Shown piece after piece: positions 4,386 through 9,204 of a DNA stretch of 10,412 nucleotides (position 1 is the first letter of the stretch; each line of letters begins with the position of its first letter). The notes beneath the pieces were generated by a model. The model ran no database searches and was not told the DNA's origin. It saw only the letters and a list, made by a program, of their open reading frames with translations. A program made the translations under genes and the position numbers. The stretch is from the NCBI RefSeq assembly GCF_003334255.1, contig NZ_QOWU01000084.1. One strand, written 5' to 3'. The stretch is from Escherichia coli (GTDB taxonomy: Bacteria; Pseudomonadota; Gammaproteobacteria; Enterobacterales; Enterobacteriaceae).

Positions 4386-5144
<759 letters not shown>

Positions 5145-5215: not shown

Positions 5216-6574
5216 ATGAAGGCAAAAGCGATATTACTCGCCTCTGTCCTGCTCGTGGGTTGCCAGAGTACCGGCAACGTTCAACAGCACGCACAGAGCC
5301 TTTCTGCAGCTGGTCAAGGGGAAGCAGCAAAGTTTACAAGTCAGGCACGATGGATGGACGATGGGACGTCTATCGCGCCAGATGGTGACTTGTGGGCTTT
5401 CATTGGCGACGAGCTAAAGATGGGAATTCCGGAAAATGACCGGATTCGCGAACAGAAACAGAAATATTTACGCAATAAGAGCTATCTCCACGATGTAACT
5501 TTACGGGCAGAGCCGTATATGTACTGGATAGCAGGGCAAGTTAAAAAACGTAACATGCCTATGGAACTGGTACTACTACCCATAGTGGAGAGCGCTTTTG
5601 ATCCTCACGCAACGTCTGGCGCCAATGCCGCAGGCATCTGGCAGATCATTCCGAGCACGGGGCGCAATTATGGTTTGAAACAGACCCGCAATTATGACGC
5701 GCGTCGCGATGTTGTTGCTTCAACAACTGCCGCGCTGAATATGATGCAGCGTCTGAACAAAATGTTTGACGGCGACTGGCTTCTGACCGTAGCGGCTTAT
5801 AACAGCGGCGAAGGTCGGGTCATGAAGGCAATTAAAACGAACAAAGCGCGTGGGAAATCCACGGACTTCTGGTCGTTACCGTTGCCGCAGGAAACGAAGC
5901 AGTACGTGCCTAAAATGCTGGCATTGAGTGATATTCTCAAAAACAGCAAGCGTTATGGCGTACGTCTGCCAACGACCGATGAAAGCCGTGCTCTGGCGCG
6001 TGTGCACCTGAGCAGCCCGGTTGAAATGGCGAAGGTAGCAGATATGGCGGGGATTTCCGTCAGCAAGCTGAAGACATTCAACGCTGGCGTAAAAGGCTCC
6101 ACGCTGGGCGCAAGTGGCCCGCAGTACGTGATGGTGCCAAAGAAGCATGCAGATCAACTGCGTGAATCTCTGGCTTCAGGCGAAATTGCTGCTGTACAGT
6201 CGACGCTGGTTGCCGACAATACGCCGCTTAACAGCCGTGTTTACACCGTACGCTCTGGCGACACGCTTTCAAGTATCGCTTCACGTCTCGGCGTAAGCAC
6301 CAAAGATTTGCAGCAGTGGAACAAACTGCGCGGATCTAAGCTGAAGCCAGGCCAAAGTTTGACGATTGGTGCAGGCAGTAGCGCACAGCGACTGGCAAAC
6401 AACAGCGATAGCATTACGTATCGTGTGCGCAAAGGCGATTCGCTTTCAAGCATTGCTAAACGCCACGGCGTGAACATCAAAGATGTGATGCGCTGGAACA
6501 GCGACACTGCGAATCTGCAACCAGGCGATAAGCTGACGTTGTTTGTGAAAAACAACAACATGCCAGATTCCTGA
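5216..6574 (+). CDS. mltD: Membrane-bound lytic murein transglycosylase D (lipoprotein; SLT catalytic domain plus two C-terminal LysM domains), 452 aa
   Basis: Signal peptide with lipobox MKAKAILLASVLLVGC; transglycosylase motifs LPIVESAFDP (catalytic Glu) and AAYNSGEG; two LysM repeats (YTVRSGDTLSSIASRLGVSTKDLQQWN and YRVRKGDSLSSIAKRHGVNIKDVMRWN); TGA stop at 6572-6574. Confidence 0.95.
   Translation: MKAKAILLASVLLVGCQSTGNVQQHAQSLSAAGQGEAAKFTSQARWMDDGTSIAPDGDLWAFIGDELKMGIPENDRIREQKQKYLRNKSYLHDVTLRAEPYMYWIAGQVKKRNMPMELVLLPIVESAFDPHATSGANAAGIWQIIPSTGRNYGLKQTRNYDARRDVVASTTAALNMMQRLNKMFDGDWLLTVAAYNSGEGRVMKAIKTNKARGKSTDFWSLPLPQETKQYVPKMLALSDILKNSKRYGVRLPTTDESRALARVHLSSPVEMAKVADMAGISVSKLKTFNAGVKGSTLGASGPQYVMVPKKHADQLRESLASGEIAAVQSTLVADNTPLNSRVYTVRSGDTLSSIASRLGVSTKDLQQWNKLRGSKLKPGQSLTIGAGSSAQRLANNSDSITYRVRKGDSLSSIAKRHGVNIKDVMRWNSDTANLQPGDKLTLFVKNNNMPDS
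6242..6500 (+). repeat. Intragenic tandem duplication within mltD encoding two LysM peptidoglycan-binding modules (about 80 nt each, roughly 180 nt apart)
   Basis: Nucleotide-level similarity between about 6242-6328 and about 6419-6500 (e.g. GGCGA(C/T)(A/T)CGCTTTCAAG(T/C)AT(C/T)GCT, GGCGT(A/G)A(G/A)CA(C/T)CAAAGAT, (T/G)GGAACA), giving near-identical protein repeats. Confidence 0.6.
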
Positions 6575-6584
6575 CAAACCAGAT

Positions 6585-6620
6585 AATAAAAAGGCACCGA
6601 TTCCCCCGGTGCCTTTTTTA
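6585..6620. terminator. Bidirectional rho-independent terminator between convergent mltD and yafE
   Basis: Perfect 8-bp stem AGGCACCG (6592-6599) / CGGTGCCT (6607-6614) with 7-nt loop, flanked by an A-run upstream (6585-6592) and a T-run downstream (6614-6619), so it can terminate either strand; lies between the mltD stop (6574) and the yafE stop (6622). Confidence 0.75.
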
Positions 6621-6621
6621 T

Positions 6622-7245
6622 TTATGCCGCTTTATGTGCATCTACCATGATGATATCACTGGTGAAAAAGCCATCATTCTGCAAGGCAAAATACGTTCTC
6701 ACCTCTGTCGATGCGCTCTGTTGGTAAATGCGAATAGCGTCTACTAACGCTTCTGGCGTACGCATTCTCGCGACCCATGAAGAAAATTCCAGCGGTAACT
6801 TATCTGTAATTAAATTATCAACTATCAGATTGGCTTCATTGATTAACGTCAACCACTCACCGCTGGCGTAGTTTCGTACGTGAGAGGTATCGCGTAATGC
6901 TTCTACCGTCTGTAACCAGATGTCGCGCACTGGGTGACCCGGAGACATTACGTCCATCACAATCAGCCTACCGCCAGGTTTCAATATCCTATTCACTTCT
7001 CGCAGTGCTGCACCAACATCATGCCAGTGATGGGCAGAATAACGGCTGATAACAATATCAAATGCGTTATCGGCAAATGGCAGACTTTCGGCATATCCCT
7101 GGCGGGTGGTGATATTTTTCAGTTGCCGGGCTTCGGCAGCTTGTGCCACGACATCCAGCATGTGGGCAGATAAGTCATACGCCACCACCGCGCTCACGTT
7201 TTGCGCAGCGCCAAACGTTGGTCTGCCCTGTGGCAGACCTGACAT
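6622..7245 (-). CDS. yafE: SAM-dependent methyltransferase-like protein YafE (207 aa); begins inside the canonical motif I region and lacks strand beta1
   Basis: ATG at 7245, only 3 nt after the yafD TAA stop (operon arrangement, same frame); class I methyltransferase motifs: post-I VVAYDLSAHML, motif II LPFADNAFDIVISRYSAHHW, motif III LKPGGRLIVMDV; no hh(D/E)hGxGxG strand is encoded upstream in any frame. Confidence 0.85.
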   Translation of the reverse strand: MSGLPQGRPTFGAAQNVSAVVAYDLSAHMLDVVAQAAEARQLKNITTRQGYAESLPFADNAFDIVISRYSAHHWHDVGAALREVNRILKPGGRLIVMDVMSPGHPVRDIWLQTVEALRDTSHVRNYASGEWLTLINEANLIVDNLITDKLPLEFSSWVARMRTPEALVDAIRIYQQSASTEVRTYFALQNDGFFTSDIIMVDAHKAA

Positions 7246-7248
7246 ACC

Positions 7249-8100
<852 letters not shown>

Positions 8101-8289: not shown

Positions 8290-9204
8290 ATGAAAGCCAC
8301 GTCGGAAGAACTCGCCATTTTTGTTTCGGTCGTCGAAAGCGGCAGCTTTAGCCGGGCAGCGGAACAATTAGGGCAAGCAAACTCAGCGGTAAGCCGGGCG
8401 GTGAAAAAGCTGGAGATGAAACTTGGCGTTAGCCTGCTTAATCGGACCACGCGACAACTTAGCCTGACGGAAGAAGGCGAGCGTTATTTTCGTCGCGTAC
8501 AGTCAATTTTGCAGGAGATGGCAGCGGCAGAATCAGAAATTATGGAGACGCGTAATACACCGCGTGGACTGTTACGGATCGATGCCGCAACTCCAGTGGT
8601 GCTGCACTTTCTGATGCCGTTAATTAAGCCTTTCCGTGAACGCTATCCGGAAGTCACTTTGTCGCTAGTCTCCTCCGAAACGATTATTAATTTGATCGAA
8701 AGAAAAGTGGATGTCGCGATACGCGCTGGTACGTTAACGGATTCCAGCTTACGTGCCAGGCCGTTATTTAACAGTTATCGAAAAATTATCGCCTCCCCCG
8801 ATTATATTTCCCGCTACGGGAAGCCAGAAACGATCGACGATTTAAAGCAACATATTTGCCTGGGATTCACTGAACCCGCTTCCCTCAATACCTGGCCGAT
8901 AGCCCGTAGCGATGGACAATTACATGAGGTGAAGTACGGTTTGTCATCCAATAGTGGGGAAACACTGAAACAGCTTTGCCTGAGTGGCAACGGGATTGCG
9001 TGTTTGTCCGACTACATGATCGACAAAGAAATCGCTCGCGGAGAATTGGTGGAGTTAATGGCAGATAAAGTGTTGCCAGTGGAAATGCCATTCAGTGCCG
9101 TCTATTACAGCGACCGTGCGGTAAGTACGCGCATCCGGGCTTTTATCGATTTCCTTAGCGAGCATGTAAAAACAGCTCCCGGAGGAGCTGTCAGAGAGGC
9201 TTAA
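8290..9204 (+). CDS. yafC: LysR-family transcriptional regulator (304 aa)
   Basis: ATG at 8290 with AGGAG at 8280-8284; N-terminal winged-HTH typical of LysR-type regulators ([56 protein letters not shown]), followed by a periplasmic-binding-protein-like effector domain; divergent from yafD-yafE. Confidence 0.9.

Follow-up and report, generated by a model that had tools for sequence, protein, structure and literature searches.

The closest relatives of full-length YafE among solved structures are B. subtilis YcgJ (PDB 1xxl and 2glu, E = 1.9e-36) and B. halodurans BH2331 (PDB 1vl5, E = 9.1e-31). Both are structural-genomics methyltransferases, and the alignment with them spans the Rossmann core and the C-terminal region. 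YcgJ and BH2331 each have a complete motif I (VLDIGAGAGH and VLDVATGGGH, respectively), whereas the alignment of the E. coli K-12 protein begins only after this motif. It is well established for the class I methyltransferase fold that strand β1 is at the center of the sheet and that the SAM pocket is lined by motif I. The UbiE/MenG quinone methyltransferases (TIGR01934, PF01209), which are among the top NCBIfam matches, have a Methyltransf_11-type core in common with YafE. However, the TIGR01934 scores of the K-12 protein (60.6 bits) and the full-length protein (72.3 bits) are far under the curated cut-off (158.35), and YafE is therefore not a UbiE/MenG member and resembles these enzymes at the level of the fold only. 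Full-length YafE falls under every curated NCBIfam cut-off. Intact YafE is a Methyltransf_11-type class I enzyme, and for the K-12 allele the most fitting description is that of a remnant, specific to one lineage, of the YafE ortholog of enterobacteria.

Members of the YafE ortholog group are ~255–258 amino acids in length and have a characteristic N-terminus (MTTxSHHDNVEKQF...VLDMGCGAGH), which is absent from the 207-amino acid K-12 form. The full-length proteins of E. coli CFT073 (WP_000211716.1), O157 (WP_000211693.1), and IAI1 (WP_000211726.1) are 256 amino acids long, include VLDMGCGAGH (sequence MTTQSHHDHVEKQF...DASVLDMGCGAGHASFVAAQNVS...), and are encoded at the same locus as the K-12 form, between yafD and mltD. 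A 77-nt spacer separates yafD from yafE in these three strains, and the annotation of CFT073 and O157 accordingly lists yafD, the 77-nt spacer, and a 771-nt class I methyltransferase gene. Residues 62–256 of the full-length protein are 91–93% identical to residues 13–207 of the K-12 form, and the two have AYDLS, motif II, motif III, and the C-terminal extension in common. Full-length YafE has 61 N-terminal residues that the K-12 form lacks, and its gene starts at an ATG 77 nt from the end of yafD, preceded by a Shine-Dalgarno sequence of its own.

The window analyzed here is a stretch of 10,412 nucleotides of E. coli DNA that carries the K-12-type allele. Its open reading frames and gene list place gloB at positions 4389–5144 and mltD at 5216–6574, both on the plus strand, and yafC at 8290–9204, also on the plus strand. 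Between mltD and yafC, on the minus strand, lie yafE (6622–7245; 207 codons and TAA) and an intact yafD (7249–8049), which encodes a 266-amino acid member of the endonuclease/exonuclease/phosphatase family and ends in a TAA at 7249–7251. The order gloB-mltD-yafE-yafD-yafC is annotated identically in K-12 records, and the position of yafE directly 3' of yafD and before the convergent mltD is that of the ortholog group. A hairpin (GGCACCG...CGGTGCC) with an A-run and a T-run on its flanks occupies positions 6586–6619; it resembles a bidirectional terminator common to the convergent mltD and yafE, and the same element is found in L001. In gene orientation, the yafD-yafE junction reads CCT GAT AAA TAA GGT ATG TCA GGT CTG CC, and the yafD TAA and the yafE ATG (7243–7245, minus strand) are 3 nt, or one codon, apart in the same frame. 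The product begins MSGLPQGRPTFGAAQNVSAVVAYDLSAHML, and its unique N-terminal peptide is SGLPQGRPTFGAAQNVSAVVAYDLSAHMLDVVAQAAEAR.

The K-12 ORF has neither strand β1 nor the motif I (hh(D/E)hGxGxG) of class I methyltransferases. Residues 4–96 of the K-12 product match Pfam Methyltransf_11 (PF08241) over model positions 5–95 of 95 (E = 3.1e-23), while in the full-length allele residues 49–145, including VLDMGCGAGH, match positions 1–95. With the UbiE/MenG-type models of NCBIfam, the match to the K-12 product starts only at model positions ~58–70. Likewise, K-12 residue 11 aligns to chain residue 37 of YcgJ (PDB 1xxl), whereas full-length YafE is aligned from chain residue 22, with VLDIGAGAGH included. 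These alignments confirm an earlier note on this DNA, which had described YafE as starting directly after the yafD stop and as missing β1 and the GxGxG loop. The motifs quoted there (VVAYDLSAHML, LPFADNAFDIVISRY, and LKPGGRLIVMDV) are all present, and the post-I acidic residue (in AYDLS), FDIVISRY, and KPGGRLIVMD are retained in K-12 and are invariant or nearly so among the aligned orthologs. No hidden β1-encoding segment was found upstream in the other frames, as had been reported; the upstream DNA is yafD itself. The same note had placed MSGLPQGRP at the position of the Gly-rich loop. MAFFT does pair GLPQGRPTF with GCGAGHASF, but the two segments are not homologous, the K-12 segment being derived from spacer DNA. 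MSGLPQGRP is not a degenerate Gly loop: it is translated former yafD-yafE spacer, and the resemblance is coincidental.

Predicted structures of the two forms differ accordingly at the N-terminus. For the CFT073 protein, AlphaFold2 (with an alignment of 30 sequences; pLDDT 71.9, pTM 0.73) predicts helices at residues 6–21, 25–28, and 31–40, followed by β1 (47–50), the Gly loop (51–57), αA (59–63), and β2 (68–73). In the K-12 model, residues 1–9 are disordered (the first ten residues have a mean pLDDT of 31), and these are followed by a stub of αA and then by β2 onward, with no strand replacing β1. The remainder of the K-12 model looks like the intact protein, a likeness that is imposed by the alignment and is not informative on stability.

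Alignment of the window with the CFT073 and O157 loci revealed a single 221-column gap with repeats on both flanks. The left bound of the gap falls between ACGTTTGG and CGCTGCCC, and the right bound between AGCTTTGT and CGCTGCGC. The breakpoints lie inside an imperfect 11-nt direct repeat, TTTG(G/T)CGCTGC, one copy of which is in the yafD-yafE spacer and the other at yafE codons 60–63. The junction in the window (positions 7205–7215, minus strand) is a hybrid of the left repeat, TTTGGCGCTGC, whose sequence it bears, and the right repeat, TTTGTCGCTGC, with the crossover within CGCTGC (7205–7210). The identical gap occurs in seven deletion alleles from different strains. It is thus very probable that K-12-type yafE is a 5'-truncated remnant of a methyltransferase gene, made by a 221-bp deletion between imperfect direct repeats. 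Slipped mispairing or annealing at the TTTG[G/T]CGCTGC repeats would be the likely route to such a deletion.

Of the DNA missing from the window, 39 nt are from the distal part of the spacer and 182 nt from the coding sequence. The spacer part includes the Shine-Dalgarno sequence AAGGA, 8 nt 5' of the native ATG, and the coding part runs from this ATG through codon 60 and takes in two bases of codon 61. As modeled in full-length YafE, the lost residues form the three N-terminal helices, β1 (VLDM), the SAM loop (GCGAGH), and the first turn of αA. Relative to full-length YafE, the K-12 product has lost its first 61 residues and has 12 unrelated residues in their place; these are encoded by codons 1–12 (MSGLPQGRPTFG, positions 7210–7245, minus strand), which are noncoding spacer DNA in intact alleles. 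The repeat is read in one frame in both contexts (TFGAA and SFVAA), so that the fused ORF stays open. The ATG of the remnant is present in intact Escherichia alleles as well, where it opens a 25-codon upstream ORF that, in CFT073 and O157, ends in an ATGA on the yafE start. A conserved leader peptide was considered for this ORF and rejected, because even the other Escherichia loci, like the other genera, do not preserve its ATG, frame, and stop. By chance, this Escherichia ATG, 3 nt after the yafD stop, is in frame with what remained of yafE, and a 207-codon ORF resulted.

The outgroups place the deletion on the K-12 side of the comparison. We scanned one genome per species and took the 80 best-matching loci outside E. 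coli, from other Escherichia (E. whittamii), Citrobacter, Klebsiella, Raoultella, Enterobacter, Leclercia, Kosakonia, Salmonella enterica subsp. diarizonae, and others. A YafE homolog was present in all 80 of these loci, matching the full-length query from residue 1 (occasionally 2 or 8) through 251–256, and D(M/L)GCG(A/G)GH and the N-terminal region were conserved in those loci that were translated. Since the outgroup loci carry a long YafE with a conserved N-terminus, full length is the ancestral state of YafE, and the K-12 form is derived from it. In the same 80 loci, yafD is immediately 5' of yafE, with a spacer of 70–91 nt. The idea that the abutting genes reflect an ancient junction finds no support here, as the ancestral arrangement is two genes with a 70–91-nt spacer; the tight yafD-yafE junction is derived and limited to part of E. 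coli. Two usual marks of a pseudogene apply to the K-12 allele: the ancestral form is intact in the outgroups, and the lesion that disables the gene is defined. The reading of YafE as a truncated remnant, one of those put forward in the earlier note, is borne out: the proteins of other E. coli and of all sampled Enterobacteriaceae are 49 residues longer in total.

The distribution of the two forms within E. coli was determined by megablast of the yafD-yafE region against 5426 complete genomes. The locus was found in 5425 of these, in most as two pieces over ~1421–1423 bp, compared with 1201 bp in the window. The deleted segment is present in 3811 of the 5426 genomes. The K-12 junction, searched for with a 70-mer across it at a threshold out of reach for half-matches, is present in 1611 (~30%, a frequency that is too high because the collection contains laboratory derivatives of K-12 and B). 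The two classes total 5422 genomes, and each sequence occurs in one place only per genome. This complementarity means that the lost N-terminal segment is not encoded elsewhere and that yafE is not a split gene. Carriers of the junction include K-12, C600, NCM3722, B/BL21, HS, and many human, animal, and environmental isolates, and the deletion allele marks one E. coli lineage (K-12, B/BL21, HS, C600, and relatives).

A synonymous SNP in yafD (position 7330, minus strand; T in gene orientation and C in every sampled intact allele) lies upstream of the junction, at a distance of 115 nt, and separates all seven deletion alleles compared from all 13 intact ones. A 30-mer with this SNP occurs in 1634 genomes, and its linkage to the deletion is almost complete, which favors one founding event in one lineage. 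Two variants of the junction exist, TTTGG in K-12 and TTTGT in B, O145 RM9154, D2, and EC812A1, and they are related to different intact haplotypes. The EC812A1 remnant is identical to the intact O121 RM8352 allele over 623 nt, and the K-12 remnant differs from the intact MLI023K2 allele at 3 of 623 nt, all within 53 nt of the junction. The two variants and their haplotypes imply either that the deletion recurred or that recombination or mutation followed a single event. The evidence on independent origins conflicts, with the haplotypes arguing for them and the shared, nearly exclusive SNP against them.

The loss of β1 and motif I leads us to infer that the 207-amino acid protein is unable to bind SAM and inactive as a methyltransferase, and one published binding assay supports this. 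MG1655 YafE has been cloned and purified to ~90% homogeneity (Nucleic Acids Research, 2025; PMC12096079). Its tryptophan fluorescence was unchanged by SAM, "suggesting no SAM binding," although an assay of this type can miss SAM binding that leaves tryptophan unperturbed, and YafS, tested alongside, bound SAM with a Kd of 0.68 µM (PMC12096079). MG1655 YafE also had no methyltransferase activity on RNA, adenosine, AMP, or ATP (PMC12096079). This null is exactly what the deletion predicts; truncation of YafE is not mentioned in that paper (PMC12096079). Two observations from K-12 count against a remnant. The recombinant protein is soluble, and the Keio yafE knockout had the largest drop in m6A peaks, in one replicate and treated by the authors as noise (PMC12096079). 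A search of the literature for expression of native YafE yielded nothing usable, with recombinant overexpression alone documented.

Translation of the remnant, if it takes place, would need termination-reinitiation after yafD. The ORF is probably translated poorly or not at all, as no more than 1 nt separates its AAGG from the ATG and a stable hairpin forms from about codon 2–3 onward. This hairpin (GGTCTGCC-ACAG-GGCAGACC, positions 7220–7239, minus strand) consists of arms A and B of a conserved RNA element of the intact spacer, described below, and is now inside remnant codons 3–9.

Other lesions and patterns of substitution are consistent with limited constraint on yafE in E. coli. Nearly all strains examined encode an identical YafD (WP_001230983.1), its gene having zero nonsynonymous versus 2–13 synonymous changes. 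For yafE, dN/dS is ~0.16–0.7 among intact E. coli alleles, and ~0.06–0.10 against the highly divergent allele of SCPM-O-B-8794. A small sample of strains yielded several independent lesions: 1-nt deletions in two different GGG runs of the motif I codons (NRZ100600 and CFSAN064036, the latter a haplotype of no more than 26 genomes), an 84-bp deletion in strain A21 that removes residues 20–47 in frame, and an IS5 insertion in TA8571. The gene looks weakly constrained and repeatedly damaged in E. coli. Two further candidates were rejected. The IHE3034 gene, suspected of a frameshift from its match length, is intact, and S243F in DGFFTSD, considered as the loss of an invariant residue in K-12 alone, is not a sign of decay after the deletion, as the intact MLI023K2 allele shares it.

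The remnant might instead have been exapted, its ORF being translated and kept for a SAM-independent function such as substrate binding via the retained C-terminal lid. We consider this very unlikely. The 207-codon ORF is indeed open in all seven sampled deletion alleles, which also speaks against a remnant, but these alleles are too alike for this to carry much weight, and an open frame is expected by default in an allele so young that K-12 is 3 nt of 623 from an intact one. The allele is common, at 1611 genomes, but its frequency is inflated by the laboratory derivatives. Exaptation would also fit the transcriptome-wide effect of the knockout on m6A peaks, which comes from one replicate (PMC12096079). 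Against it, the differences between close deletion alleles are mostly nonsynonymous (~10 versus 2 synonymous), which fits neutrality, with counts far too small for proof. The native Shine-Dalgarno sequence has also been lost, the strong hairpin follows from about codon 2–3, and several such alleles are already designated pseudogenes by PGAP, the annotation pipeline of NCBI. The K-12 allele probably behaves as a pseudogene with an ORF open by chance.

It is very unlikely that truncated YafE is functional with the help of another protein, such as a co-transcribed and stop/start-coupled YafD, that supplies β1 and the Gly loop or steadies the SAM site. The in-frame spacing of 3 nt between the yafD TAA and the yafE ATG would suit such coupling, but this tight junction is a by-product of the deletion and not a conserved design. 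Conserved linkage in the 80 best outgroup loci does suggest that YafD and YafE probably act together, and the solubility of the K-12 protein would be in keeping with a working partner. However, YafD WP_001230983.1 is identical in strains with intact and with truncated yafE, and there is therefore no compensatory change in YafD. YafD is, moreover, an EEP-fold nuclease/phosphatase, without a Rossmann element to donate, and the missing segment is absent from the deletion genomes, so that no N-terminal fragment can be provided in trans. Purified YafE, too, bound no SAM (PMC12096079). The suggestion that YafE needs a partner such as YafD is thus not supported, the intact 256-amino acid YafE being self-contained beside an almost invariant YafD.

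There is practically no chance that the short form is ancestral and the others gained 221 bp, a reading favored solely by the status of K-12 as reference sequence and contradicted by the long form with conserved N-terminal residues in all outgroup genera and by the 221 bp encoding motif I and a Shine-Dalgarno sequence, or that the junction is an assembly or sequencing artifact, the same junction being present in 1611 independently assembled complete genomes. No sign of an insertion in the other strains, such as mobile-element ends, is seen for the 221 bp; the segment encodes the conserved N-terminus.

The spacer that the deletion removed in part has features of its own in intact alleles. Genera of Enterobacteriaceae share four almost unchanged segments, which we call A (CAGGTCTGCC), B (GGCAGRCCTG), C (GGTGCTGCCCTTT), and D (AAGGACA, which is the Shine-Dalgarno sequence), whereas the intervening linkers are variable in both length and sequence. 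The E. coli intact spacer is predicted to fold with −34.3 kcal/mol (z = −5.25), with A pairing with B and C with D, and with a basal stem in which UGUCA just after the yafD stop pairs with UGACA overlapping the yafE AUG. The Citrobacter and Salmonella spacers have the same predicted fold. Over a set of 78 distinct sequences, pairing amounts to 99.8% in the A:B helix, 83.6% in the C:D helix, and 97.1% in a mutually exclusive B:C helix. The B:C helix has six cells changed on both sides, compared with 0.5 in shuffles (0 of 500 reach six) and 0–2 in slid controls. A search of the spacer against Rfam returned no family and only a chance miRNA match (E = 4.2), and a consensus scan found no simple terminator in it. 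A dispersed REP/ERIC-like repeat was rejected, as the spacer is single-copy in every genome.

The folding model suggests that the yafE ribosome-binding site is inaccessible in the ground state. Termination of a ribosome at the yafD stop, 5–8 nt upstream of A, would free B for pairing with C (GGGCAG/CTGCCC, with a U-run next), and the outcome would be either exposure of the Shine-Dalgarno sequence and AUG or a terminator. We tentatively propose, as a possibility somewhat short of an even chance, that the intact spacer is a previously undescribed RNA switch that acts in cis and ties yafE expression to yafD translation. K-12 keeps only A, B, and six bases of C.

Annotation treats the deletion alleles unevenly. 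PGAP flags some alleles with the 221-bp deletion as "incomplete; missing N-terminus," whereas others, that of K-12 among them, are annotated as an ordinary CDS with the name yafE. Among the RefSeq records that we examined, the symbol yafE is on truncated forms only, and intact genes are without a name. The case resembles the K-12 laboratory-lineage lesions ilvG-, rph-1, and rfb-50 listed in the MG1655 genotype (PMC12096079), in that a gene intact in many E. coli is disabled in the reference strain and studied as normal. Unlike these, the yafE deletion is not a laboratory mutation, occurring in B, HS, and many natural isolates, and it leaves an open, annotated ORF.

The K-12 yafE allele is an ordinary lineage-specific, pseudogene-like case, and its value lies mainly in annotation and in the interpretation of K-12 data. 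K-12 is the reference for E. coli gene function, and experiments on K-12 "YafE" study a crippled remnant and not the real enzyme. The Keio yafE knockout served as a candidate RNA methyltransferase mutant in an earlier screen (PMC3936739), and both this knockout and recombinant MG1655 YafE were used as if representing the putative methyltransferase (PMC3936739, PMC12096079). Negative results with K-12 YafE are explained by the deletion and are silent on the real enzyme. For work on the function of YafE or of the conserved yafD-yafE pair, the appropriate choice is an intact allele, for example from CFT073, O157, IAI1, Salmonella, or Citrobacter.

The intact spacer between yafD and yafE (L001:1950–2035 in the CFT073 locus, with equivalent stretches in L002 and L004–L083, further intact loci from E. 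coli and other Enterobacteriaceae) is a single-copy element with four segments that scarcely vary in sequence: A (CAGGTCTGCC), B (GGCAGRCCTG), C (GGTGCTGCCCTTT), and D (AAGGACA). Only positions 7220–7239 of this element remain in the window. Segment D is the Shine-Dalgarno sequence of yafE. Segments A and B can pair with each other, as can C and D, sequestering the Shine-Dalgarno sequence and the AUG; pairing of B with C constitutes an alternative to this arrangement, and compensatory changes were seen in the B:C helix. A search of Rfam with the spacer element gave no match. One possibility is that the element acts as a switch, by translational coupling or attenuation.

In the intact CFT073 and O157 alleles, an ATG located 3 nucleotides downstream of the yafD stop codon opens a 25-codon upstream ORF (L001:1956–2033 in CFT073; product MSGLPQGRPTFGAALLYSNNKRTAQ), whose TGA overlaps the yafE ATG (ATGA). 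Conservation of this ORF does not extend to other Escherichia loci or to other genera. The first 12 of its codons supply the N-terminus of K-12 YafE.

The 221-bp deletion, through which K-12-type alleles lack the distal spacer and yafE codons 1–61, has two junction variants, TTTGG in K-12 and TTTGT in B, O145 RM9154, D2, and EC812A1 (junction base at window position 7211, compared with the E. coli alleles L084, L085, L086, and L088). The TTTGG and TTTGT remnants match different intact haplotypes, although every one of them carries the linked SNP at window position 7330, and this linkage favors one founding event. Either recurrent deletion, or one event with later recombination or mutation, could account for this pattern.

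Further independent yafE lesions occur in E. coli (L090, L095, and L097; H1, a match among complete genomes). These are 1-nucleotide deletions in two different GGG runs within the motif-I codons (NRZ100600 and CFSAN064036), the in-frame loss of 84 bp encoding residues 20–47 (strain A21), and an IS5 insertion (TA8571, NZ_AP024205.1).

In the RefSeq records of L003 and L084–L099, PGAP applies the gene symbol yafE to the truncated form only, leaving intact 256-amino acid genes unnamed, and deletion alleles of identical type are annotated in some cases as pseudogenes ("missing N-terminus") and in others as normal CDSs. NZ_CP026085.1 ("strain DH5alpha," 4.83 Mb; H40) has the 221-bp segment, and thus an intact-type yafE 5' region, unlike the other sampled K-12 derivatives, which carry the deletion. 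This record does not look like K-12 at the yafE locus.

Between the convergent mltD and yafE genes lies a GC-rich hairpin (GGCACCG...CGGTGCC; window 6586–6619) with an A-run on one side and a T-run on the other; the T-run reaches to within 2 nucleotides of the yafE stop codon. The hairpin resembles an intrinsic terminator able to act in both directions.

Compared with other E. coli alleles, the yafE of L004 (NZ_JAATUR010000042.1, a record labelled E. coli SCPM-O-B-8794) has differences at 61–69 of 623 sites, and compared with E. whittamii at 52, while the 3' part of its yafD differs at only 14–19 of 466. This yafE could have arisen as a mosaic or by introgression. Across loci L001–L099, nearly every E. 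coli examined has the same YafD protein (window 7249–8049), with zero nonsynonymous change, whereas YafE (window 6622–7245) differs by 6–9% in amino acid sequence between strains (dN/dS 0.16–0.7). At the level of sequence, a nearly invariant YafD beside a variable YafE is a striking asymmetry for co-oriented neighbors.
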